DNA of 64,000 nt. Source: a virus. Lineage: Duplodnaviria > Caudoviricetes. Positions 1 through 57,866 of the stretch are shown here, piece after piece. Position 1 is the first letter of the stretch, and each line of letters begins with the position of its first letter. The translations under genes and the position numbers were made by a program. The DNA lies in IMG/VR virus record IMGVR_UViG_3300042465_005116, positions 64,001 through 128,000 of that record; one strand, written 5' to 3'. The notes under the pieces are model-generated. The model was given only the letters and a program-made list of their open reading frames with translations, was not told the origin of the DNA and did no database searches.

Positions 1-661
1 GTAAATCAAACTGATTTGTTAGAATATATCCTTTATGGTCGTTTAACCAATGTACACATTTTCTTGATTCAATACGAGAAGCAAATCCAATTTTACCATT
101 ATCAACATGAGTAGTGAGCGGTAAGTTATTTTTAAACTCATAAAAATTTGGAACGTTATATGTGTAGTTTGGATGTTCATCAATCATAGTTGTGGTATTA
201 TTACCTACCCAAATTCTACGATTAAATGTTGCTAAATACTCATCATAAAAATCTGAATCAACTTGAGTATTATATTGTAACCTTTTTAGTTCCGGAATAG
301 CAGAAATTGCGGCATCCATTTCTCTAGCATATGCATGAACAAAGACAGTTTTAAATTTATCTTCAAAATGCCAAATGTGCGGTCTTAAATGATAATGTGG
401 ATGTAATACATGAATTTCTTCACACTCATCTAACCACGTTCTAGTCTTTTCAGGGTCATCGTAGTGAAAATGATGAACCAATCCCTTCGGTAAGTATTTT
501 GATTCGAATGAAGCGGGTCTCTTGGAGTCAATAAGTAATCTCCAATCCCTTTTGACAGGTAGTGTTGGCCAAACTAATTCTAAAAAATAATTAGTCCATA
601 TATCGGCCCCACCCATAACAGTATTACCACATCCAGTTGTAACTAAAACCTTTATACTCAT
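1..661 (-). CDS. Glycosyltransferase, GT-B-like (runs off window edge; absent from ORF track)
   Basis: Manual translation from ATG at 661: MSIKVLVTTGCGNTVMGGADIWTNYF...GKIGFASRIESRKCVHW. The N-terminal GGAD loop and the GFASR..RK segment resemble GT-B/GT4 enzymes. Open to the window edge. Confidence 0.6.
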   Translation of the reverse strand, partial: MSIKVLVTTGCGNTVMGGADIWTNYFLELVWPTLPVKRDWRLLIDSKRPASFESKYLPKGLVHHFHYDDPEKTRTWLDECEEIHVLHPHYHLRPHIWHFEDKFKTVFVHAYAREMDAAISAIPELKRLQYNTQVDSDFYDEYLATFNRRIWVGNNTTTMIDEHPNYTYNVPNFYEFKNNLPLTTHVDNGKIGFASRIESRKCVHWLNDHKGYILTNQFDL

Positions 662-690
662 AACATATATAAATATATAAAAATTAAATT

Positions 691-1242
691 TTAAACAAAC
701 GATTTTTCTCTAACCCACACAATTGCAATCCACTTTGTACCACTAATAACTGGCAATCCTGCATGTAAACTTTCAAAATCTAAACTACCATCTATTTTTA
801 GATTACTCCACATTAACATACGACCAGTTTTTGGTGTTACTTTTATTTTTTTAGTAGGAAATTCGGTTTCACCCCCTTCAAATTCATCGTTTAAATAAAA
901 TAAACAAGATACCACCCTCTGACCACCTGATTTCATAGTAGTATCGTAATAATCAGTATTTGGATGGAAAAAATCATGATGTGTTTTATATTCACCACCA
1001 ACGTTATATTTTACAATATGTATTTGTTCTTGATTTTCAATTGGAAGTCCTGATTTACTTGAAATTATTTTTTTTATTTTTGTTGTTAATTCTGTTTTTG
1101 AATGAATCCACGTATTTTCAGCAACCCTATAATTTTCAATTGGAGTTCCTAATGTAGAAGCACTTATCATATTTGCAGAACCCATTTCAATTAGTTCTTT
1201 ACATTCTGCTTCAGATATTTCATAATCAATTATTGCTATCAT
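691..1242 (-). CDS. Prolyl 4-hydroxylase-like 2OG-Fe(II) dioxygenase
   Basis: EQIHIVKYNVGGEYKTHHDFF (HxD), QRVVSCLFYLND.FEGGETEFP, HAGLPVISGTKWIAIVW: P4H catalytic-domain pattern including the 2OG-binding Lys. Confidence 0.88.
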   Translation of the reverse strand: MIAIIDYEISEAECKELIEMGSANMISASTLGTPIENYRVAENTWIHSKTELTTKIKKIISSKSGLPIENQEQIHIVKYNVGGEYKTHHDFFHPNTDYYDTTMKSGGQRVVSCLFYLNDEFEGGETEFPTKKIKVTPKTGRMLMWSNLKIDGSLDFESLHAGLPVISGTKWIAIVWVREKSFV

Positions 1243-1245
1243 AAC

Positions 1246-2103
1246 TTATTTTTTACAAGTTGTACATTCTTTATAAACTTCATTTACCCATTCTAAAGTA
1301 GTTCTTTCAGTTCCACCATAATCTTTTAAACCAGTAACAAAATCCATATTTGGATTGAATTTACTCCAATTACATAATTCTCTATAAGAACTATTATAAT
1401 TTGGAATATATTTATGCCAAATTATATTTTTTCTAATTGCAAATACATCATAACCACTTTTAAATAGTAAAAGGGAATATATTTCTTGTTCTTTAGTTGG
1501 GTTGTAATATTCGTTTACTTTTAATATATTTACAATTTCACCACTACCAAATAAGTTACCTCCTGATATATTCATCACTTTTTCATAACCATCAATTGGG
1601 TGTCTCATACAATGTGGGGGAATAAATTCAGGTGTCCACGTCGGTGCATTAGATGTATATATTGTGGCAACGTTTCGTTTACTATATACATCATATGTTT
1701 CATTAAATTCAAAAATCTGTGGAAATACACTAATAACTCCCTTTGATGGTATTTCACTTAATTGATTAATATATTCATCATCCCACCCTATCAAAAATCT
1801 AGAATGAGAATCTACACATAAAAAATAATCTTCATTATTATATAAATTTTCCATTATTAAATTCCTAGCCCATCCACATCCTTGTGCATCAGAAGCTAGT
1901 ATTTGCATAAATTTTACATTTAAATAAAATAGATGGTTATTAATTAAATCTGTTATTCTTTTTTGTTCTACCTCAGTATCTTGCAAACACACTCCAATAA
2001 ATACATTATTTGGATTATTCGCTTTATTAAAACAATCTATTATAGTGTTAACAACATCAAAATCTTTATATGAAGCTATACTTACAAATATCGTTTTATT
2101 CAT
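1246..2103 (-). CDS. GT60-like (Gnt1/Skp1-type) polypeptide GlcNAc transferase
   Basis: TIFVSIASYKD start, GCGWARN, YFLCVDSHSRFLIGWD (DSH metal motif) and IWHKY match the GT-A GlcNAc-transferase family of Dictyostelium Gnt1. Confidence 0.8.
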   Translation of the reverse strand: MNKTIFVSIASYKDFDVVNTIIDCFNKANNPNNVFIGVCLQDTEVEQKRITDLINNHLFYLNVKFMQILASDAQGCGWARNLIMENLYNNEDYFLCVDSHSRFLIGWDDEYINQLSEIPSKGVISVFPQIFEFNETYDVYSKRNVATIYTSNAPTWTPEFIPPHCMRHPIDGYEKVMNISGGNLFGSGEIVNILKVNEYYNPTKEQEIYSLLLFKSGYDVFAIRKNIIWHKYIPNYNSSYRELCNWSKFNPNMDFVTGLKDYGGTERTTLEWVNEVYKECTTCKK

Positions 2104-2112
2104 AATTATTTA

Positions 2113-3732
2113 TTATTCTATTTGTTTTACTTCTGCTCGGTTATGTACTAATATACCACTGCCAAAGTATACGTCATCATCTTCAATATTAACACTAACA
2201 GTTTGACAAGTTTCATTAATGAATTCAATGTCGCGTATTCTAACCCATATATCATTGGTATTAAATAAATAATCACCCACTAATAAATTATAAACCTTAC
2301 AAAACTTATATTCATTACCTCTTTTTATAAACACAGGATGTTCATATGTTATTCGTATTGATTTATTTATAATATAATAATTGGAATAAGACCCATGCAT
2401 TAAAGTTACAACCCTTGCTGTTGATGGTTCAAACCAAAATTTAGTATCAGAAAAATTAACCCAATTTTTTTCAATATCCTTATCTAATCCTTCTATTGAT
2501 AAACTACTAAGAATATCTCCCAATACTAAATCTTCAATTAATTTATTACTACCATCAGCCATTTTAATTTCAGTACCATAAAGAAAACACGGGTCTTCTT
2601 CCGGTGGAGGAGGTGGTGGTGGAGTTGGTGTTGGTGGAGGCGGAGGTGGTGCCGGACAACTACTTACTGTATTAATAAACCCATTACCTTCTACATAGTA
2701 AACTGAAGTTCCGTTTGAATAATATCCATCGGCTGCATTCGAACTACCATCACTAGCTGATTTTAATACACATTGTGCAATAAGTGATGAACAAGTACTC
2801 CATACTTCCGTAGTTACACCCATAGCACATGCCAACGAATCATCTCCCGCATTATATCCAAAATTAAATGAATAATATGTTGGAGGTGCCGGCGTAGGCG
2901 GAGGTGGAGTTGGTGGTGCAACATAACATGCAACAGCACTTATCCCATATCTAACACCCGCTCCAGTTGTAGCGTTATAAATATAAACACCATAACTTCC
3001 ACCATAATCACCTACACCTGTAAAAGTGTACGATGTTGCACTACCAATTGATAACGTAGCCAATGCTGCAGGACTAGCAGTATCCACACTATATCCAACG
3101 TAACAATCACTTCCACCATTTGCTATATTTTCTATAAATATTCGACCACTTGCACCCGTTGTTCCACTACAATCTTGTGTAACAGTAGCAGTTACCGCAG
3201 GTGGTGGAGTTGGTGGTGGTGGAGTTGGTGGTGGTGGAGTTGGACACGTACATCCATTAATGCCAGTTGCACGAAAAAGATGAGTATCAGTTGGAGTGTA
3301 TGATGTTCCTACTGCTATATAACAAATTTCATTTACATCATCGTATATATTTGTTCCGTAATTATAACTTCCAAAAATATGTCCCTGTGCTACCCCACCC
3401 GTACCACATTGTGATAAATATGTATATACCTGAGGAGCCGGTGTTGGAGGTGGTGGAGTTGGAGGAGCCGGAGTTGGTGGAGCCGGTGTTGGTGGAGCCG
3501 GAGTTGGAGGTGCCGGTGTTGGAGGTGCTGGAGTTGGAGGTGCAGGTGTTGGAGGAGCTGGAGTTGGAGGAGTTCCTGTTCCTCTTCCAAGAAACTCATC
3601 CATACCATGTGGTTTTGTAGGAATCCCATATGCTATAGCAGCCGTATCCATATCAACTTGAGTACCTGATGCAATATTTCTATCGGTATTAAATAAATTA
3701 AATGATATTTCTCCTGTAGACGGTAATGCCAT
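2113..3732 (-). CDS. Pro/Thr-rich, probably virion-associated protein with C-terminal Hint domain
   Basis: (PPTPA)n tracts separate small Cys-containing domains. C-terminal CFLYGTEIKMADG...VYFGSGILVHN is a Hint fold. The MALPSTGEIS start is typical of proteins next to phage tail fibres. Stop/start overlaps the tail fibre gene. Confidence 0.75.
   Translation of the reverse strand: MALPSTGEISFNLFNTDRNIASGTQVDMDTAAIAYGIPTKPHGMDEFLGRGTGTPPTPAPPTPAPPTPAPPTPAPPTPAPPTPAPPTPAPPTPPPPTPAPQVYTYLSQCGTGGVAQGHIFGSYNYGTNIYDDVNEICYIAVGTSYTPTDTHLFRATGINGCTCPTPPPPTPPPPTPPPAVTATVTQDCSGTTGASGRIFIENIANGGSDCYVGYSVDTASPAALATLSIGSATSYTFTGVGDYGGSYGVYIYNATTGAGVRYGISAVACYVAPPTPPPPTPAPPTYYSFNFGYNAGDDSLACAMGVTTEVWSTCSSLIAQCVLKSASDGSSNAADGYYSNGTSVYYVEGNGFINTVSSCPAPPPPPPTPTPPPPPPPEEDPCFLYGTEIKMADGSNKLIEDLVLGDILSSLSIEGLDKDIEKNWVNFSDTKFWFEPSTARVVTLMHGSYSNYYIINKSIRITYEHPVFIKRGNEYKFCKVYNLLVGDYLFNTNDIWVRIRDIEFINETCQTVSVNIEDDDVYFGSGILVHNRAEVKQIE
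3436..3570 (-). repeat. Nine tandem 15-bp units encoding PPTPA/PPTPP
   Basis: Units vary mainly at synonymous positions (e.g. agccggagttggagg, tgcaggtgttggagg on +), which points to selection on the protein repeat. Confidence 0.9.
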
Positions 3733-6700
3733 TACTTATTCTCTTTTAACTCGTTAATTTCTTTTTTCAATTCCTTAATACACTCAACTAATAAGGGTAC
3801 AATTTTTTCGTATTTGATAGCAAGGTATCCATCTACTCTTTTTACCACAACCTCGGGTAAAATTGTTTCTACTTGTTGAGCAATTAAACCTACATCGTGT
3901 TTTCTTATAAAGTAATTATCTTCGCCCTTACCACCACTTTCTTTTTGAATATATTCATCTGTCCAATCAAATTCTACCCCATCTAATTTTTCTATTTTAT
4001 CAAGAGCTTTTCCTATTGGTATAATATTTTCTTTTAATCTTTTATCTGAAGTAGCGAATGCAGTTATATTTCCGGTAGCAGTAATACCACCACCAACTGC
4101 AACGAAATTAGTATTTGCCTCATTTCTTTCAACTTTAAGATATCTATCAGTACTTGCTACAACTTGGAAACCACCCGCAACTAATTCAGTTTTCGATACT
4201 TGTTGTGATACCGATATAGTACTTATCTTTGGAGTGTTATAAGAGACACTAACATCAAAAGTTGCAACTGTTCCTGAATCACGATACGCAACACATACTC
4301 CATTTTTAATATAAGGTACAAAATAATATGTTGTACTTGGTGATAATGAAATAGCCCCGGTTAAAGTACCAAACGCATCACCGCTGGCCCAACCAAATTG
4401 CTCTTCTATGATAGTGTTACCATATCCAAATACCTCTGAAAAATTTATTGCTTTCGATATATCTAAAACTTCATTAGCTATACCTGTACCACCCGCTCTA
4501 ACGGAAATCCCTATGGTATAGTAGTGTTGTACATAACTTATATAAGGAGTATTTCCCCCAAATGGTTGATTACCCGGTTCTAAATATACACTATAATTTG
4601 AAAGTACCCCATGCCATAAATTTGTACTTATGGAATAAATTCCAGTAGTCCCAGCACTTGTAGTAAAACTAGGTGATGAACCAGGAGTCCATTCTAAATA
4701 TGTTGGGTCCATATTAGCAGATATTTGTGTAACATATTGGGAAGTGTTACCAGCATATTGTTGCTGAGTATTATAATTTGTTACTGAAGTTGGACTTATT
4801 GTTACACTACCGGCACTTAAACTACTCAATGTAGAGGCGTTACTTATATCTACCCTTAATGCAGTACCCTCATAAATTTCAATAGCAGGTCTTGCTGCGT
4901 TTAATCTTAATTTTTCAGTTGAATCTCGTATACTTGTAGGAGTTACAGTCCAACCCCCAATGTTACCGGTGGTAGCCGAAACTCTACCAGTAATATCCGC
5001 ACCGGTTGCAAACAATATACCGGCATTAGTTACCCTAAACGGGGCATTACCAAATGTAGCATTTCCTAACCACATTCCATTACTATCTGCTTTAAAAATA
5101 GTATTTGAACTACCAATTGAAATTGCTCCGGTACTATCTAATATTGCTGCTCCACCTGTTAAAGTGGTTGCACCCAATGTCCACCCACCAATAGTACCAG
5201 AAGTTGCTTTTAAAACTCCCGCGGGTGTTACACTAAATTCTGCACTTCCAAATGTTTCATTACCTAAATAAATTCCACTAGTATCCGCAGTAAATACACT
5301 TTCACCACTACCAATTCGAATAGAACCATTAAACGTTCCTGTTGCTGCGGATAATGCACCACTAAACGTTCCTCCACCATTAACAGTTAAAGATGTTCCA
5401 TCCCATAATAGGGAATTACTAGCAGATTTTAAAGACAATCTATATACGGGTGAACTACTAACATTAACCACCCCCATAAAAATACCATTTACATTATACC
5501 CTTGTGAACCGGCTGATGAACTTTGTCCGATAGATATGTACGGATAGGCACTGCCACCTGCTAAAGTAATATTTGCTGCTGCCATTGCACCATTCGAATT
5601 CGTACCAATGTTTAAAGTGTTTTGAACAAACGAATCTTCAAATATACCTATTTTAGCTGCAACAAAGAAATCTTGTGCACCTAACGATATCCAACCCGTT
5701 TGTGCTGCTTGATGTGGTGCACCATTTATTACGTTTCCTGTTGCTGAAAGATGTTGTCTAGTAGTTGCGTAGTATGTATTATACGGAGCGTTTCCATTTG
5801 TACTCCATAAGACAGTATCTCTTCTACCAGTCCCCGTTGTTAACCCATCTGAAAATTGATAGGTTCTACCACTTGTCCAAACTCCGGTATGAACCACACC
5901 AGGACCTGTTTGACCCGTTGCACCATCATCTCCATCAGTTCCATCAGTTCCATCAGTTCCATCAGTTCCATCAGTTCCGTTAATTGTTACATTTACTTTA
6001 TGTTCTTTAGTTATTGTACCGGTAGTTCCTTCCGAATTTACATATGTTATAGTAATAGCTACAGTCGTACCTGCATCGGTAGTTGGTGTGGTTGGTGTTA
6101 TAGTTGTAGTTCCCGTTCCACCTGTTAATGAAATTTGATATGTATTTATTGCACCACCAGTTGAATATGTATAATTTGTTCCACCTTCGTTTACACTAAT
6201 TGTAAATGTAGCAGGTGTAGCATATACCCCAGCGTTTGTTTTTGTAATCGATTGACCTTCATTTGATAACGTTGCAATTACTACCGGTGCAGCTTTTTTA
6301 ACTTTTGATAAACTTAATGTATCAGTTAGAGTTCTACTTGTCCCTTCAGAATCCGTAACTACTGCTGATATTGCTATTGTTGTAGAATTTGTTCCCGCTG
6401 CTAAAGTTTTTCCATTTAACGTTACCAACCCACTTGCAGCAGTAGTTGATATTGATGTAATATCTGAAGATGTTGCAGTTAACGATGTTATTGTTTTTGT
6501 TGTAGTAGAACCATTATAAGTTTCCCTTACAACTATTGTTGAATTTGCAAATGAATCAATTTGTGCACCGGTTGATTTAGCAGTTACACTTTGGTCTTTT
6601 GGTGTTGCAGAAATTGCAAGAACCGGAGCAGCTTTTTTATTTTTTGTATAAGTTGCAGTTTTTATAACACTTGTGGTATCTCCGGCACCATCTTTATAAT

Positions 6701-9302
6701 TAATTGTAATATCTAAAGAACCAGAATCTGCTGCAAGTGCGGTTATACCATATACGTTTGTAGATGGATTTGTAATATTTGGAGTACAACCTATTCCGCT
6801 TAAATTAGTTATTGCAAATGTATTATTAGCTCTAAGATTATCATTATCATCATCAAATGTAATAGTCTCATTTCCCACTTTTACGTTTACCGAACCACTT
6901 GTAAAAACAAAATCACCATTTGCTACAACTCCAGTTGAAAGTGCAGGCAAGGATGTATTATCATTTGTTAATGTAACTGATAATCCATCTAATATTTTTA
7001 CAGGAGTTATGGTTACCGCATCTGAAAATTTATTTCCAAATTGGTCAGACCCTGTGAATGAATATGTAGTAGAACCACTTAAAAATGGATATGCAGAACC
7101 AGCTAATGTGAATAACGTTACACCTGAAGTAGCATCAGTTGCTCCAATAGTTAAAGGTGGTTTTAAACTACCAGAATTTACTTCTAATGTACCAGTAGTT
7201 GATGCTAAATTTTTTCTTTTAGCCTCTATTGTAATTACTTGGCCTGATGGATTTAAGGATAAATCAGTTGCCTTATAAATAAATTGGTTAGCGTTTGAAG
7301 TTGTAAATAGACCGGGTGCATTTTCTCCATCTTCAAATCTATAAATGGTTTCGAACTCATTTAACCCATCACATGATGCAGTATAAGTTATAGAACCAAT
7401 TAATACTGATGGTACACTACCACTAAAATTAGCAATAGTTAAACTTGCACCACCATCTCCTGCGTTTGTTAAAAGACCAGGATATGTTCCCGCATAACTA
7501 GCAGGAACTATATAATTACCATCTGTATCAAACGCAGCAGATGCATAAGTAACCGAACCTGTTAAATTAGTTCTACTAATTGAGAATCCAACTTGTTGAA
7601 AAGCAGGATTACCAAACGAACCACTCGTAAAACGAAATGCAGTTCTATCTGATTCAAATGTTAAGATTTTTGAGGTAGTTGTAAAACTGTTACCACCATT
7701 AAATGTTTTTGAAGTTTTTACATCAACGGGAATATAATTGTTATTTATATCGTAAAATTCAAATTTGAAATCATATGTCTCACTCGCAAGTTTACGAGGA
7801 ATATCTTGTATTAAAGTAAATTCATCAGGTGAAAACGAAGTTTCTTGTGCGTTTTGTAAACTCACATTTGCCAAATACCAATCATCACCCGCAAACTCAA
7901 ATACTAATTTAGCATCTCCAGTCTTAGTAGCCTTTACATTTTGAGTTACGTTTTGTTTTGTAGTATATATCGCCGAATTAGTAACATTTACGATAGTTTG
8001 TTGTGGATAATCCGAACCACTAAAATATGCTTTTAAAGTTTTAGTCGAATCATTTGAACCACTTAGGAGTGTTTTGAATGAAAGGGTATACTCAACTCCC
8101 TCTGTCAGAGATAGAGATTGAGATGTAATAAAAAGGGCAGTATTATCATAATTTGAACCACTATAATCTACCTTAACCGATGCGTTTAATTTATCTACAT
8201 TAATTGTAATTGGATGTGCAGTTGAACCACTTACCCAATAATTTTTTATATTGGTATCCGTAAACTGACCATAGGATAATTCCGTATTAGCAGTTGTTGT
8301 TATATCTTTTAGTATTTCTGATGATTCTAATTTAGTATCTTGTATGAATTGGTAATCACCAACTTCGTTTCTAGATTTTCTATAAACCTTTACTCTCGCT
8401 ACATCACCAACAAATGTTTTTAAATCTGATAATTGAATTTTAGCAAAAGAACCCGTCAACGCCGAGTTGATAATCGTCTGACCTTCAATATGGTCAAATG
8501 TAGTTGTGTAGGCAGTAGCAGGAAAATTTGAAACGGATGATGATACCGCATATGGAATATCTACAAATATTTCTTTGTTATTTAAGACCTCTCTTATAGT
8601 TGCCGAATACCCTAATGATGGTATTGTTATGGTATTTTCATCAACGGATGATGTCCAATTTGAACCATCGGTAATTTTTAATTTATATAAAGTTCCGGCT
8701 GTCCAAGTTCGAATATCAGTACCATAAACTGGTTGTTGTGGGATACCTTCAACCAATCCCGTTTGAGTAACTGATGGGGTTGTTATATTAAAAATGGGTT
8801 TATTTATCTCATCAATTGTAATTTTTGGTCTTTTATAAAACCTAACAATAGTTTCATTCGAAAGATTTTTATTTACATTAAACGTTCTCTCCCACTTAAT
8901 ATTATAGATACCACTCCACTCAGCAGGAATATCTCTAACTACTCCGGTCTCATCAATATAGGTTTTTAATTCACCTAATACAGTAATTTTTCCTAAACCA
9001 ATAGGGGTATCCTCATAGACATGAACTGATACAATTTTTGAAATTCCTTCGTAGTATTCTGGTATACCATTACCCGGCTCGTAATAAATCGGTGTGCCGG
9101 TAACATCTAATATCTCAATTTTAATTTCAGTTGTTTCCTTTAAATGTTCAGAACCCTCTATAAGAAACCCATTCTTACCACCGGTGAAGGTATCTTTAAA
9201 TTCGGTAATTCTAAAATATTCAGACGTTCTAACTTGGTCATTTATAAATGTACCAAAGTTTGATAAGTTTTGATACGAAGCGAACGATTTAATTATTGCC
9301 AT
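3732..9302 (-). CDS. Large tail fibre/tail protein with C-terminal peptidase S74 intramolecular chaperone
   Basis: C-terminal SDKRLKENI...GVEFDW...GLIAQQVETILPEVV...YEKIVPLLVECIKEL; beta-rich Gly/Thr/Ser repeats; short collagen-like segment. Confidence 0.85.
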   Translation of the reverse strand: MAIIKSFASYQNLSNFGTFINDQVRTSEYFRITEFKDTFTGGKNGFLIEGSEHLKETTEIKIEILDVTGTPIYYEPGNGIPEYYEGISKIVSVHVYEDTPIGLGKITVLGELKTYIDETGVVRDIPAEWSGIYNIKWERTFNVNKNLSNETIVRFYKRPKITIDEINKPIFNITTPSVTQTGLVEGIPQQPVYGTDIRTWTAGTLYKLKITDGSNWTSSVDENTITIPSLGYSATIREVLNNKEIFVDIPYAVSSSVSNFPATAYTTTFDHIEGQTIINSALTGSFAKIQLSDLKTFVGDVARVKVYRKSRNEVGDYQFIQDTKLESSEILKDITTTANTELSYGQFTDTNIKNYWVSGSTAHPITINVDKLNASVKVDYSGSNYDNTALFITSQSLSLTEGVEYTLSFKTLLSGSNDSTKTLKAYFSGSDYPQQTIVNVTNSAIYTTKQNVTQNVKATKTGDAKLVFEFAGDDWYLANVSLQNAQETSFSPDEFTLIQDIPRKLASETYDFKFEFYDINNNYIPVDVKTSKTFNGGNSFTTTSKILTFESDRTAFRFTSGSFGNPAFQQVGFSISRTNLTGSVTYASAAFDTDGNYIVPASYAGTYPGLLTNAGDGGASLTIANFSGSVPSVLIGSITYTASCDGLNEFETIYRFEDGENAPGLFTTSNANQFIYKATDLSLNPSGQVITIEAKRKNLASTTGTLEVNSGSLKPPLTIGATDATSGVTLFTLAGSAYPFLSGSTTYSFTGSDQFGNKFSDAVTITPVKILDGLSVTLTNDNTSLPALSTGVVANGDFVFTSGSVNVKVGNETITFDDDNDNLRANNTFAITNLSGIGCTPNITNPSTNVYGITALAADSGSLDITINYKDGAGDTTSVIKTATYTKNKKAAPVLAISATPKDQSVTAKSTGAQIDSFANSTIVVRETYNGSTTTKTITSLTATSSDITSISTTAASGLVTLNGKTLAAGTNSTTIAISAVVTDSEGTSRTLTDTLSLSKVKKAAPVVIATLSNEGQSITKTNAGVYATPATFTISVNEGGTNYTYSTGGAINTYQISLTGGTGTTTITPTTPTTDAGTTVAITITYVNSEGTTGTITKEHKVNVTINGTDGTDGTDGTDGTDGDDGATGQTGPGVVHTGVWTSGRTYQFSDGLTTGTGRRDTVLWSTNGNAPYNTYYATTRQHLSATGNVINGAPHQAAQTGWISLGAQDFFVAAKIGIFEDSFVQNTLNIGTNSNGAMAAANITLAGGSAYPYISIGQSSSAGSQGYNVNGIFMGVVNVSSSPVYRLSLKSASNSLLWDGTSLTVNGGGTFSGALSAATGTFNGSIRIGSGESVFTADTSGIYLGNETFGSAEFSVTPAGVLKATSGTIGGWTLGATTLTGGAAILDSTGAISIGSSNTIFKADSNGMWLGNATFGNAPFRVTNAGILFATGADITGRVSATTGNIGGWTVTPTSIRDSTEKLRLNAARPAIEIYEGTALRVDISNASTLSSLSAGSVTISPTSVTNYNTQQQYAGNTSQYVTQISANMDPTYLEWTPGSSPSFTTSAGTTGIYSISTNLWHGVLSNYSVYLEPGNQPFGGNTPYISYVQHYYTIGISVRAGGTGIANEVLDISKAINFSEVFGYGNTIIEEQFGWASGDAFGTLTGAISLSPSTTYYFVPYIKNGVCVAYRDSGTVATFDVSVSYNTPKISTISVSQQVSKTELVAGGFQVVASTDRYLKVERNEANTNFVAVGGGITATGNITAFATSDKRLKENIIPIGKALDKIEKLDGVEFDWTDEYIQKESGGKGEDNYFIRKHDVGLIAQQVETILPEVVVKRVDGYLAIKYEKIVPLLVECIKELKKEINELKENK
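5931..5975 (-). repeat. Five perfect 9-bp repeats encoding (TDG)n in a collagen-like Gly-X-Y segment
   Basis: tccatcagt x5 on +; protein NGTDGTDGTDGTDGTDGDDGATGQTGPG. Confidence 0.9.
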
Positions 9303-51283: not shown

Positions 51284-51813
51284 TATATAATAGTTTTATT
51301 TGTTGGGCTATTTCCTTTTCTTAATCGGCCGGGCCCATTTAAATCAAATATATCTTCGTAATATGTTATAGGTATATTAATACTTTTAGAAATAAATTCT
51401 AAATCAGTATGATACGAAAGAACTTGTTCATATCTCCATTGGTCATGTGGAGTAGTCTTCCAAAGATAATTTTCATAAAACATAAATTTTTTCATATCAT
51501 GATAATAATTTAAATAAGCCCAACTTTCTCCACACGCTTTTAAATCTTTTCTTGATAATAAAATAACTTCATCAAATTCTTTTGTTAAATTTATTAACCA
51601 CTCAATCCTATCTTCTTGTTTAATTTCATCCAAACTTTGAAAAACAAGTGTTTTAACTACAATATTATTTTCGTTAGAATTATATCTTTCAATACCAATG
51701 CTTAGTGGATTAAATGGTTCAAATAAATATTTTTTTATATTGTATTTTTTTCTCATCGTTTCCCCTAAACTCGTAGAACCTGTTCTCGGTAATGCAATTA
51801 TTAAAATTTTCAT
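51283..51813 (-). CDS. Short sulfotransferase-like protein, paralogue of 49645..50139
   Basis: IIALPRTGSTSL, LFEPFN, ILLSRKD, ITYYEDI, RLRKG. Confidence 0.65.
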   Translation of the reverse strand: MKILIIALPRTGSTSLGETMRKKYNIKKYLFEPFNPLSIGIERYNSNENNIVVKTLVFQSLDEIKQEDRIEWLINLTKEFDEVILLSRKDLKACGESWAYLNYYHDMKKFMFYENYLWKTTPHDQWRYEQVLSYHTDLEFISKSINIPITYYEDIFDLNGPGRLRKGNSPTNKTII

Positions 51814-52376
51814 AACAATGTTTTATTAGATTTTAATTTAGGATAATCAAAATCAGTTTCCGTCATCCAAATATTTAATGCGTAACGCGTACCACTTACA
51901 ACTGGTAGTACTCCATGATAAGTAGTCGAACCATTAAATGATATGGAATCTCCTAATTTCAAATCGGATAGTGTTAATCCATTTAATGTTTCAAAATGAT
52001 AAGGAGGATTCACATCTTCGGTTAAAGCAAATTGACCCCCTTCAAAATTATCAGAAAGAACAATTACTGTGGTTAATTCACTTGATTTATCCTTATGTAG
52101 ATTAAGATATCTACCATCATAATATGAAGTTAGACTGATATTAAAATTCTTTAAATTAAATGATAGGTAATCAAACCATAATTTAAAGTTTCCGTTTTTA
52201 TAATTATCGGTTAATAAATTAATTATTCTTTTTTTAAATTCTTCATCATACATTCTTCTACAATCCCAATGTTCGGTTGGACTATATGAAAAGGGTTCAC
52301 CAAATTTAAGACAAAAATCAATTATATCATTGGCAGTTTCTCTATTACAAAAATTATTATTTATGGTATAATTCAT
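51810..52376 (-). CDS. 2OG-Fe(II) oxygenase
   Basis: LHKD, FEGGQF, HGVLPVVSGTRYALNIW. Confidence 0.85.
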   Translation of the reverse strand: MNYTINNNFCNRETANDIIDFCLKFGEPFSYSPTEHWDCRRMYDEEFKKRIINLLTDNYKNGNFKLWFDYLSFNLKNFNISLTSYYDGRYLNLHKDKSSELTTVIVLSDNFEGGQFALTEDVNPPYHFETLNGLTLSDLKLGDSISFNGSTTYHGVLPVVSGTRYALNIWMTETDFDYPKLKSNKTLL

Positions 52377-53194
52377 AATAGATGCGAATTTTTTGGTTTA
52401 GTATGTGTTAATAAATTACCTTCACTTATAAATTTATATAATTCATCGGCAATTAATTTATATCCATTATTACTTGGATGTTTACCTGCGGTAGTACTTA
52501 TCCAATTATTACCATCCTCCCATACATCTTTTCTATTGGTATCAATTAATAAATTTGCCATTGTTTTAGTTTGATAACCCCAATATTTATCACTCTCGAT
52601 TAAATTGGTTTTATCAACTAACTTATGAATATTTTTATTAATCATTATATCAAACGCGTCACAAAAAAGATATCTGATTCCTAATTCTTTAAATATAAAT
52701 TGAAGATGTAAAATATAGTTTTGATTCACTATATCATAGTAAGTATCATTGAATAAATTACCTATGTAATAATCTCTAAAATTTTTTTCCGCCCTATTAT
52801 AGTTTATATTATCACTATTAACTCCATCAAAAATATACTTTAAAAGGTGTTCTTTACTTTTATATCGTTTGCCCCATATAAAAAAATCATCTTTGGTTGG
52901 GAAAAAAGGTAACGGGTCTCTTAGAGAAGATGACCACATAATAACAACAAAATCATCTTGAGTGATGATTTCATTTTTTAACTGATAAGATACTGCGTTA
53001 AATATTGCATTATTTGAGAATGCACCAACTCCATTATTTTTAACTTCACATTTTAATAGTTCTGATAAGTGTTTCGGCCAACAATATTTTTGTCTTATTA
53101 TTGTCCTTTGTTCTGGATTATCAGTAGTATATTCATCTTCAATATTTCCACCAACCCCCTCAGTCCAACTATCCCCAAAGGTAAACAATTTCAT
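52373..53194 (-). CDS. SGNH/GDSL-like protein
   Basis: FGDSWTEG, NNGVGAFSN, C-terminal KHPSNNGY. Confidence 0.65.
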   Translation of the reverse strand: MKLFTFGDSWTEGVGGNIEDEYTTDNPEQRTIIRQKYCWPKHLSELLKCEVKNNGVGAFSNNAIFNAVSYQLKNEIITQDDFVVIMWSSSLRDPLPFFPTKDDFFIWGKRYKSKEHLLKYIFDGVNSDNINYNRAEKNFRDYYIGNLFNDTYYDIVNQNYILHLQFIFKELGIRYLFCDAFDIMINKNIHKLVDKTNLIESDKYWGYQTKTMANLLIDTNRKDVWEDGNNWISTTAGKHPSNNGYKLIADELYKFISEGNLLTHTKPKNSHLL

Positions 53195-56617: not shown

Positions 56618-57253
56618 TTAATTTAGTTTTTTATAAAATATATCAGCTAATTCTTTATGACCTACTTCAGAAAAATGGGCATCGTTAATTACGCCATTAG
56701 TTTCATCTTGTAATCTATTTAATAAAGTTCCCACATACCAATCTGTTGGTAGTAATTGTTTTTTAAGATGAACATCAGTACATAAAGCAAAGGGTGACCA
56801 AAAAATAACTTTAATGCCTTTTAATTTAAATATAGTACTAAGTAATTTAGACCAATTAACTATTTCATCCCAATATAACCTACTCATCCTATTAATCCGA
56901 ATTTGCTCTAATGTATTTGTATCAATAAATTTATGTAATTCTAATTCAGATTGTACATGTCGAATAGTAACCCATTTGTTATTTTTTTCTAATCGAAATC
57001 GGGAAGGATGTGACCAACCTATTATAACAATATCACCACTATTTATCGTGTCCATTTTAGTAATAATAGTGTCAAATATAGTATTATTATCTGCACCTCC
57101 AACACCTAGTTGAATAACATCAGTATTTAACATGATTGCTAAATGGTCTGAAAATATTTTTGGGGTATAACCTTTCCATTCACTATATTGTTTACCCAAC
57201 CCACCTTGTTTTTCCCATGTTGTGGAAAATGAATCACCAAATACCCAAATCAT
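56618..57253 (-). CDS. SGNH/GDSL-like protein
   Basis: FGDSF, GVGGADN, IIGWSHPSR, DAHFSEVGH. Confidence 0.65.
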   Translation of the reverse strand: MIWVFGDSFSTTWEKQGGLGKQYSEWKGYTPKIFSDHLAIMLNTDVIQLGVGGADNNTIFDTIITKMDTINSGDIVIIGWSHPSRFRLEKNNKWVTIRHVQSELELHKFIDTNTLEQIRINRMSRLYWDEIVNWSKLLSTIFKLKGIKVIFWSPFALCTDVHLKKQLLPTDWYVGTLLNRLQDETNGVINDAHFSEVGHKELADIFYKKLN

Positions 57254-57813
57254 AAAAGATTTTGTTTTGTTGAATTAGTTTTAACTAATGATATCCAATT
57301 TACTAATGAATATCTAATGCCGGCTCTGATGGGAGTTACCCTATGTGTTAATCTCGAATTAAAAATATATAATGTTCCAATTTTATTTTCTATTGGTACT
57401 AACTCACCTTTAAGGTTTTTAATTTCTAATACACCACCTTCATATGAATTATTTAATTGAATTACTATCGATGTAAATCTATCTCTATATATAGTATCGG
57501 TACTATCGACATGCCAATCAAAATATTCACCTTCTTTATATTCAGTAAATTGAAAATCTCCCAAACCAGTAACTTCCATTCCATTTATATTGAAAGTTTC
57601 TCTTAATTTATTTGTTAATCTTTCATTTAAAAATCCTAAATCAGATATCCAAGCAACCGATGATTTTCTAGTTTTTTTAGTAGGTATGGTATTAGAATCA
57701 CCGGTATATACTTCTGCATCTGATAATGTTAATTCTTTTTTGCAATTATTTAAAATGAAATCACACTCTTCGGGTGATAGAAAGTTTTCAAATATGTCTA
57801 TATTGTCAATCAT
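57250..57813 (-). CDS. 2OG-Fe(II) oxygenase (PKHD-type)
   Basis: QFTEY..GEYFDWHVD, YEGGVL, HRVTPIRAGIRYSLVNW. Confidence 0.88.
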   Translation of the reverse strand: MIDNIDIFENFLSPEECDFILNNCKKELTLSDAEVYTGDSNTIPTKKTRKSSVAWISDLGFLNERLTNKLRETFNINGMEVTGLGDFQFTEYKEGEYFDWHVDSTDTIYRDRFTSIVIQLNNSYEGGVLEIKNLKGELVPIENKIGTLYIFNSRLTHRVTPIRAGIRYSLVNWISLVKTNSTKQNLL

Positions 57814-57834
57814 ATATATAAATATATAAATAAT

Positions 57835-57866
57835 AAAAAAAGGGTCACCTTTTGATGATGACCCTT
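57835..57866 (-). terminator. Rho-independent terminator after hsp20
   Basis: Minus strand AAGGGTCA-loop-TGACCCTT followed by a T-run. Confidence 0.8.

Follow-up and report, generated by a model that had tools for sequence, protein, structure and literature searches.

This study concerns a 64-kb stretch of DNA from a virus of the Caudoviricetes (positions 64,001 to 128,000 of IMG/VR record IMGVR_UViG_3300042465_005116; this whole stretch is called the window) and, within it, a set of five co-oriented minus-strand genes that fills the first 9.3 kb. In gene order these encode a tail fibre (3732-9302, 1856 amino acids (aa)), a proline-rich protein that is the candidate substrate of the system (2113-3732, 539 aa, with four Pro/Thr tracts), a GT-A glycosyltransferase of family GT60 (1246-2103, 285 aa), a prolyl 4-hydroxylase (P4H) of the Fe(II)/2-oxoglutarate type that consists of the catalytic domain only (691-1242, 183 aa), and a predicted GT4-like glycosyltransferase of the GT-B fold (2-661), whose gene runs off the window start after the first 220 of its 345 aa. 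The data presented here suggest that these aquatic phages probably hydroxylate and sugar-coat their own tail proteins, which would be known chemistry in a new biological setting. The proposal is one of comparative genomics and builds on gene identities, catalytic motifs, tight gene coupling, and the co-occurrence of tracts, an oxygenase and (usually) GT60 across lineages.

Organization of the locus

The stop codon of the fibre gene and the start codon of the proline-rich gene overlap as TAATG with one base in common, and the gaps that follow the proline-rich gene are, in gene order, 9, 3 and 29 nucleotides (nt). A promoter and terminator scan, which itself performed at chance level, found no terminator-like site between the genes of the cassette. 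The fibre was identified by PF13884 (Peptidase_S74; aa 1752-1819, E-value 4.8e-15), a self-cleaving chaperone domain at the tail fibre C-terminus, and by a match to the tail fiber family phrog_5668 (E-value 2.9e-33). An earlier interpretation made from the sequence alone, referred to here as the sequence-only reading, had described these five genes in this order, with gaps of a few nt between the first four, starting with an S74 tail fibre and a protein of (PPTPA)n repeats, and this description was borne out.

The full GT-B gene (L003:10582-11619) lies on L003, which is the same contig as the window but extends 10 kb beyond the window start. Past this gene L003 encodes a methyltransferase, three GT7 enzymes (two with a LamG domain) and a radical S-adenosylmethionine (SAM) enzyme, and the GT-B gene is the first gene of this larger glycan island. 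Because the DNA of the window is present in at least 12 lake-water metagenome runs and the longest contig encoding the GT60 protein is 229 kb, the virus is a large freshwater phage. Its backbone is myovirus-like, with a baseplate wedge protein, an SbcC-like protein and a primase, and a megablast search with 9.4 kb against 50,697 phage records gave no match.

The hydroxylase and the glycosyltransferases

The 183-aa protein matched PF13640 at 65.6 bits against a cut-off of 27 (E-value 8e-18), and its iron triad (H88-x-D90 and H160) and 2-oxoglutarate lysine (K170) align with the catalytic residues of the Bacillus anthracis P4H. Its matches in the PDB include that enzyme (3itq, E-value 4e-28), Chlamydomonas P4H-1 (2jig, 2e-24), the human collagen P4H alpha-2 subunit (7zsc, 4e-23) and the P4H of chlorovirus PBCV-1 (5c5t, 1e-15). 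At E-values of 0.01 or below no PHD, EGLN or PhyA chain was among these matches, all of which were collagen, algal, viral or transmembrane P4Hs. By sequence similarity, then, the enzyme is of the collagen/algal type and not of the PhyA/PHD type, so that the earlier identification as a prolyl 4-hydroxylase stands while its supposed likeness to PhyA does not. The nearest solved relatives work on extended Pro-rich peptides. Two other minus-strand open reading frames (ORFs) of the window, at 51813-52397 and 57253-57864, have weak similarity to the P4H (phmmer E-values 8e-7 and 5e-4) and may be further 2-oxoglutarate (2OG) oxygenase paralogues.

The GT60 assignment, for which a profile search had been suggested as a check, was confirmed by a score of 125.8 bits on PF11397, whose cut-off is 21 (E-value 3.5e-36), and by the presence of the motifs SIASYKD (the SIASY.D strand-loop at the N-terminus) and DSH. 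At the sequence level the GT-A metal site, a DxH with a downstream His (D98-S-H100 and H230), is invariant in 18 homologues down to 26% identity. The protein has no hydrophobic segment (maximum 19-residue hydropathy 1.0) and its Rossmann strand begins at residue 4, and it is predicted to be a soluble, initiating sugar transferase. Family GT60 (PF11397, GlcNAc transferase) is characterised by UDP-GlcNAc as donor and a retaining alpha linkage. Acceptor specificity cannot be read from a template because a sequence search of the PDB found no solved GT60 structure. Membrane segments are absent from the 539-aa protein, the GT60 enzyme and the P4H alike, and the three would therefore meet in the host cytoplasm.

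The GT-B protein has no Pfam or NCBIfam match. An AlphaFold2 model of the full 345 aa, built from an alignment of 22 homologues, reached a mean predicted local distance difference test score (pLDDT) of 92.5 and a predicted template modelling (TM) score of 0.89, and the top 50 Foldseek matches of this model in the PDB were all GT-B enzymes, nearly all of GT4 type (7fg9, BshA, PimA; E-values around 1e-9, TM 0.6-0.68). The modelled fold thus identifies the gene at 2-661 as encoding a GT4-like GT-B enzyme, in agreement with the GT-B call made from sequence. The family of this protein (L003:10582-11619) has more than 400 homologues of 55-79% identity in aquatic metagenomes.

The proline-rich protein

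Dense proline tracts were found in only one real gene of the whole window, the one that encodes the 539-aa protein. Its prolines number 73, of which 66 are inside the four tracts, and proline makes up 3.7% of the residues in the long ORFs of the window. Tract 1 (aa 53-105, 3418-3576; this and the following coordinates are on the minus strand) consists of roughly nine PPTPA units, and in its DNA a 15-nt unit is repeated in tandem 9.4 times at 3432-3572. Tract 2 (aa 161-184, 3181-3252) is built of PPPPT units, tract 3 occupies aa 269-289 (2866-2928), and tract 4 (aa 356-381, 2590-2667) has P6-P7 runs and an EEDP end directly before the cysteine of a C-terminal Hint domain. The residue that precedes proline in these tracts is P in 35 cases, T in 17 and A in 11. 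The protein as a whole resembles beads on a string, with small Cys-containing globular modules joined by Pro/Thr linkers and no uniform rod. The extensin-like rod envisaged by the sequence-only reading was therefore not found, as the linkers are interrupted by modules and followed by the Hint domain.

The N-terminal module (MALPSTGEIS...MDEF; aa 1-52, 3577-3732) starts genes that directly follow tail-fibre genes, and is common to the equivalent proteins of the related loci L001, L002, L009 and L060. It is also present in gp019 of Alteromonas phage AD45-P1 (41% identity, pairwise E-value 4e-8), whose start likewise overlaps the stop of a tail-fibre gene. No Pfam match was found for this module even at an E-value of 10. 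Atlas models matched it to GP38/Gp38_N clusters, the N-termini of Gp38-type fibre-tip proteins, with TM values of 0.62-0.80 over 52 residues, which is a lead only. The place of the gene, directly after the fibre gene, agrees with a protein of this type. We infer that aa 1-52 are a "fibre-following" domain and that the 539-aa protein is fibre-associated. The gp019 protein (L256:4001-4744) is annotated as a hypothetical protein of the cultured, N4-like phage vB_AmaP_AD45-P1, and has an MxLPSTGxIS module and no proline tracts.

A second module lies at aa 290-355 (2668-2865) and has the core G-[WY]-Y-S-[DN]-G. A jackhmmer search found significant homologues in the tract proteins of 22 loci on both of the phage backbones described below, including the crAss-like one. 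An AlphaFold2 model of this module had a pLDDT of 54, so its fold was left unassigned and the fold search was dropped. Atlas matches to the middle modules (scores of 0.80 or below, TM below 0.5) were not used.

The last 158 residues form the Hint (intein-like) domain, which is mapped to 2143-2589, and its key residues are present: Cys1 (C382), the block-B TxxH (T462-x-x-H465) and the terminal His-Asn (H529-N530). The +1 residue after this pair is Arg in the window, followed by eight more residues, and Ala in the related locus L016. As neither is a Cys, Ser or Thr nucleophile, the domain cannot splice, and its sequence suggests that it could instead cleave or transfer. Pfam Hint and intein profiles matched below their cut-offs (PF05203 at 16.7 bits, PF14890 at 16 bits), the best PDB matches were mini-inteins and a bacterial intein-like domain with weak E-values, and phrog_38766, a "virion structural protein" family, matched the Hint region with an E-value of 1.9e-10. 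In Erwinia jumbo phages, phage NCTB and a few others, the same domain is found at the C-terminus of proteins whose annotation is virion structural, tail-fibre or tail protein.

In the relative L016, from the same sample series, a 234-aa protein (L016:6556-7260) has a single globular module together with a P11 run and this Hint domain, and the next gene (L016:7282-9186) encodes a 634-aa protein with GT60 at its start and about 350 extra residues. In the relative L060 a 523-aa protein (L060:2406-3974) has the same N-terminal module, (APTP)n tracts and a collagen-like GPPGPPGPPGPPGVPG run where the open frame stops; a run of this type is a classical P4H substrate motif.

Conservation of the cassette across phages

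The sequence-only reading had asked whether the linkage of P4H, GT60 and a Pro-rich protein is conserved in related phages, and it is. The close relatives L001, L002, L009 and L016 keep the order of fibre, tract protein(s), GT60 and P4H. A GT2-like gene is present in addition, and the P4H often adjoins, or is fused to, a second oxygenase-like domain. A second, unrelated backbone was found in crAss-like contigs, with GT60 homologues of 45-50% identity. In these loci a P4H of 390-420 aa (often with a radical SAM/SPASM enzyme) and GT60 directly follow large tract proteins, which carry long (PT)n, (PTPS)n or (PTPA)n tracts and are either the muzzle (tail) protein or bearers of its C-terminal domain MUZ_C (PF25731, PF25729, phrog_14478). 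Since the aa 290-355 module is common to both backbones, the substrate candidate and the enzymes appear, from these sequence relationships, to move as one cassette.

The second oxygenase-like domain is fused or appended to the P4H in most relatives (L001:9300-10406; L002:10307-10804; C-terminal half of L011:5909-7078). Its sequence shows an HxD...H pattern and matches neither Pfam nor NCBIfam models; the window phage is without it, and L019, L022 and L241 have this domain alone. In the crAss-like loci L011:7078-7986, L013:7099-8001 and L189:11708-12622, a radical SAM/SPASM enzyme of the peptide-modifying type lies between P4H and GT60, which hints at a third modification of the same proteins.

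A survey of IMG/VR with a GT60 alignment gave at least 515 encoding stretches, of which 80 were kept, and these contained 30 non-giant-virus clusters at 70% identity. A P4H was counted as a neighbour within 5 kb, and tract proteins were counted where same-strand neighbours had at least 40 tract residues. A P4H adjoins GT60 in 23 of the 30 clusters, and the two genes often overlap by 0-4 nt. When clusters with and without a P4H were compared, tract proteins were present beside GT60 in 15/23 and 0/7, respectively (Fisher 0.006, kinship ignored).

The crAss-like muzzle protein provided a control. When 80 loci with muzzle proteins 50-97% identical to that of L011 were collected and the 40 with at least 5 kb of downstream sequence were used, all five loci with an oxygenase had 97-179 tract residues and all 35 without one had 21 or fewer. 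On a tree of the N-terminal part of the muzzle protein the tract/oxygenase state needs only two changes, so the comparison holds about two events and not forty, and tracts and oxygenase change together at each of them.

These results bear on whether the genes are neighbours by coincidence. It could be that P4H and the transferases are host-takeover or auxiliary genes that act on host proteins or DNA, and that the Pro/Thr linkers are ordinary tail spacers. An example of such a host target is EF-Tu, on which prolyl hydroxylases of bacteria act. The category of phrog_61 and phrog_24687 is "moron, auxiliary metabolic gene and host takeover", aquatic phages commonly encode 2OG oxygenases, and the window has its two weak paralogues. 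However, coincidence would not be expected to leave tracts missing from every homologous muzzle locus without an oxygenase (35/35) or to confine dense tracts to one gene of the window, and the P4H is closest to enzymes of extended Pro-rich peptides and not to the PHD type. We consider coincidence very improbable.

The strictest link in these data is that between tracts and oxygenase, and the transferase varies. This would suit a system in which P4H stiffens the linkers by hydroxylation and GT60 and the glycan island act elsewhere: on a different virion protein (the fibre or the capsid, for example), on a polymer of the host envelope, or on a glycan linked to lipid. Tracts are tied more strictly to the oxygenase than to GT60, the island that starts with GT60 and includes GT7 enzymes, a methyltransferase and a radical SAM enzyme could build a free-standing glycan, and the GT60-like genes of cultured Xanthomonas jumbo phages lie among replication genes without a P4H. 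However, many lineages show translational coupling of P4H and GT60 with no glycan island present, all characterised GT60 enzymes are polypeptide transferases (PMC8724618, PMC6939170), and the window enzyme has no membrane segment for lipid-linked work. A role of hydroxylation alone is judged unlikely, and the preferred reading, in which both enzymes act on the tracts, is taken up again below.

Two of these Xanthomonas jumbo phages gave the only tblastn matches to GT60 in cultured phages (24-27% identity) and, given their replication and carbamoyltransferase context without a P4H, were set aside as a different module; the carbamoyltransferase gene adjoins the GT60-like gene in phages XacN1 and Xoo-sp13. 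Between GT60 relatives from bacteria and the phage GT60 clade, identity does not exceed 34%. A comparison of the top 80 bacterial relatives found a P4H neighbour in only two, and spurious Pro-rich ORFs arose from high-GC frames, so no conclusion was drawn from it. One uncultured Bacteroidetes single-cell genome (AG-470-E04; L103) has a phage-type P4H and GT60 pair on a 41-kb contig, with a GT60 32% identical to that of the window, and this is a possible host hint for that lineage.

Tract composition and the acceptor residue

The P4Hs of plants and algae hydroxylate proline within [T/S/A/V]-Pro dipeptides and poly-Pro runs. Across loci the tracts are composed of 49% P, 27% T, 8.5% S, 7% A and 3% V, and both these and the window tracts fit the motifs of plant and algal hydroxyproline-rich glycoproteins (HRGPs), namely [S/T/A/V]-Pro and contiguous Pro. 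P4H and GT60 likely have the tracts as their common target. Within family GT60, the enzyme Gnt1 is hydroxyproline-specific and its activity depends on PhyA (PMC6939170). This precedent and the tight coupling of P4H to GT60 are the reasons for proposing an order in which proline is hydroxylated and the hydroxyproline (Hyp) is then glycosylated.

An alternative of mucin type is that GT60 glycosylates the Thr or Ser of the tracts, and that P4H acts independently on the same linkers, for example to stabilise a polyproline II helix or provide extra sites. Sister family GT27 classically prefers Pro at +1/+3 of Thr, and the T-P-A-P repeat of the window fits this preference. Thr or Ser, at 27% and 8.5% of tract residues, occurs in 129 of 130 distinct tracts, so GT60 could act without hydroxylation. 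The family holds both Hyp-directed and Ser/Thr-directed enzymes (PMC8724618, PMC6939170), and protist pp-alpha-GlcNAc transferases are of the latter kind. Additionally, L019 and L022 combine tracts and GT60 with the second oxygenase-like domain only and no classical P4H domain, and L241 pairs tracts with an enzyme of the O-FucT family, which acts on Ser/Thr. Against this alternative, P4H adjoins or overlaps GT60 in 23 of 30 phage clusters, and none of the seven GT60 clusters without P4H has a tract protein beside it. The crAss-like muzzle locus L214 has GT60, no oxygenase and 21 tract residues, and tracts follow the oxygenase perfectly. An independent action of the two enzymes is regarded as rather doubtful, and as an acceptor Hyp is only somewhat more likely than Thr.

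Proposed pathway and evidence against it

In the reading favored here, the phage encodes a system for modifying its own tail proteins inside the cytoplasm of the host, with P4H followed by GT60 acting on the tracts, and on the sequence evidence this reading is given a probability of roughly 0.5. The chemical steps, the sugar, the acceptor residue, the location in the virion and the benefit are what we infer from the genes. The 539-aa protein would be made late in infection and would probably ride on the fibre through its N-terminal module. P4H would hydroxylate prolines in the Pro/Thr linkers using Fe(II), 2-oxoglutarate and O2, and the soluble GT60 would start an O-linked glycan on the same linkers, most likely N-acetylglucosamine on the new hydroxyproline, as Gnt1 does on Skp1. 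The transferases of the island (the GT4-like GT-B and the GT7 enzymes) may extend this glycan. The product would be stiff, protease-resistant, hydrated linkers between small globular and presumably adhesive modules, and the Hint domain would probably remove itself or transfer the glycoprotein during assembly. A more specific version, in which a mobile cassette of tract tail protein, P4H and GT60 performs true Hyp O-glycosylation in the bacterial cytoplasm, here with release or covalent hand-over by Hint, is more tentative and is put at somewhat less than even odds.

Several observations weigh against this proposal, beginning with those on the acceptor already given: the Thr or Ser of nearly all tracts, the Ser/Thr-directed members of GT60, and the two loci with tracts and GT60 but no classical P4H domain. 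For 8 of the 23 P4H and GT60 clusters no tract was found in the examined DNA, and the two-change muzzle tree means that Fisher values overstate independence. Only two of the five crAss-like loci with tracts and oxygenase carry GT60; the others have either an O-FucT-family enzyme together with a carbamoyltransferase (one locus) or a 280-aa gene of no recognised family (two loci). A role of the GT-B enzyme in chain extension is weakened by conservation of its gene in close relatives only. In a freshwater metatranscriptome contigs were found on the GT-B gene, on the fibre and on the tract gene of a relative, and none on GT60 or P4H; this was counted against the proposal, and it is also uninformative because RNA libraries can hold DNA. 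Lastly, hydroxyproline was not detected in virions of PBCV-1, and the role of its P4H is unknown (PMC7019647).

The loci without GT60 have features of their own. In L241 (17357-19883) the O-FucT-family enzyme (PF10250, E-value 7e-10) and the carbamoyltransferase stand in place of GT60. In L177:9897-10760 and L180:17406-18239 the conserved 280-aa protein follows P4H, is 67% identical between the two and has a D-[AS]-D-L motif, and it may be an unrecognised glycosyltransferase.

Comparison with known systems

In the Skp1 pathway of Dictyostelium and Toxoplasma, PhyA hydroxylates, Gnt1 (GT60) adds the first sugar, and PgtA and others continue (PMC6939170, PMC3515798). The phage system, known from its genes alone, would be similar in being cytoplasmic and soluble and in using a P4H, then GT60, then further transferases. 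It differs in that its hydroxylase is of the collagen/algal and not the PHD/PhyA type, its target would offer dozens of sites on long repetitive linkers where Skp1 has one proline, its genes form a viral operon, and its purpose would be structural instead of oxygen sensing. The analogy to Skp1 drawn by the sequence-only reading therefore holds for the GT60 step, while the hydroxylase and the substrate motifs are more like those of plants and algae.

Plant and green-algal HRGPs (extensins and arabinogalactan proteins) share with the phage system the P4H subfamily (Chlamydomonas P4H-1, 2jig/3gze, E-value 2e-24) and the substrate grammar. In contrast to plants, the phage has no secretory pathway and no signal or membrane segments were found in the 539-aa protein, GT60 and P4H, and of the Hyp-transferase families GT31 GALT, GT95 HPAT and GT77 none was seen, the phage having GT60, GT4-like and GT7 enzymes. 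PBCV-1 also encodes a small P4H, related to that of the phage (E-value 1e-15), which hydroxylates Pro-rich repeat peptides in vitro (PMC7019647). PBCV-1 has a eukaryotic host, however, and no linked GT60 or adjacent substrate gene has been described for it.

Mycobacteriophage transferases are reported to glycosylate flexible extensions of the structural proteins of the phages that encode them (Freeman et al. 2023, cited in PMC12619734). As far as that citing account goes, the likeness is in phage-encoded transferases with own structural proteins as the proposed targets, and the mycobacteriophage system differs in having no hydroxylase, in its targets (capsid and tail-tube C-termini), and in its transferase families and host group. 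A further parallel is found in secreted enzymes. The "PT-box" (PT)n linkers of bacterial and fungal cellulases are O-glycosylated and thereby protected from proteases. Like the phage tracts they join small modules, which in cellulases are binding modules. Cellulases, however, are secreted and are glycosylated on Thr/Ser by host machinery, with no dedicated hydroxylase gene alongside.

To our knowledge, hydroxyproline-linked glycans have so far been described only in plants, algae and protists, and a literature search found no description of a phage system of P4H, GT60 and Pro tracts, nor of PT-linker glycosylation in phage tails. If the more specific version with true Hyp O-glycosylation holds, the chemistry would have a third independent setting after plant/algal cell walls and protist Skp1, and viruses of prokaryotes would have their first case of it. 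A phage system of this kind would also be a second, chemically different case of phages that glycosylate their own virions after the mycobacteriophages, which bears on how hosts are recognised, on the stability of particles and on protease resistance in water. It would further supply a substrate for the many 2OG-oxygenase/P4H genes of aquatic phages that lack an explanation. Hyp glycosylation encoded by a simple operon could be rebuilt in E. coli, and the compact set of hydroxylase, transferase and linker could become a tool for making hydroxylated, glycosylated linkers in bacteria.

Repeats in the fibre and tract genes

The tail fibre itself has a (GTD)n collagen-like Gly-X-Y run at aa 1109-1133 (5904-5978, minus strand) with a weak match to Pfam Collagen. 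In contigs of other lake samples this run has in-frame length variants, such as an 18-nt deletion at 5932. The DNA that encodes the tracts of the 539-aa protein (window 3141-3454 and 2513-2826) was matched by many unrelated metagenome contigs from lake and marine runs, at a depth 10-30x that of its flanks, and repeats coding for Pro/Thr tracts seem to be common in lake and marine communities.

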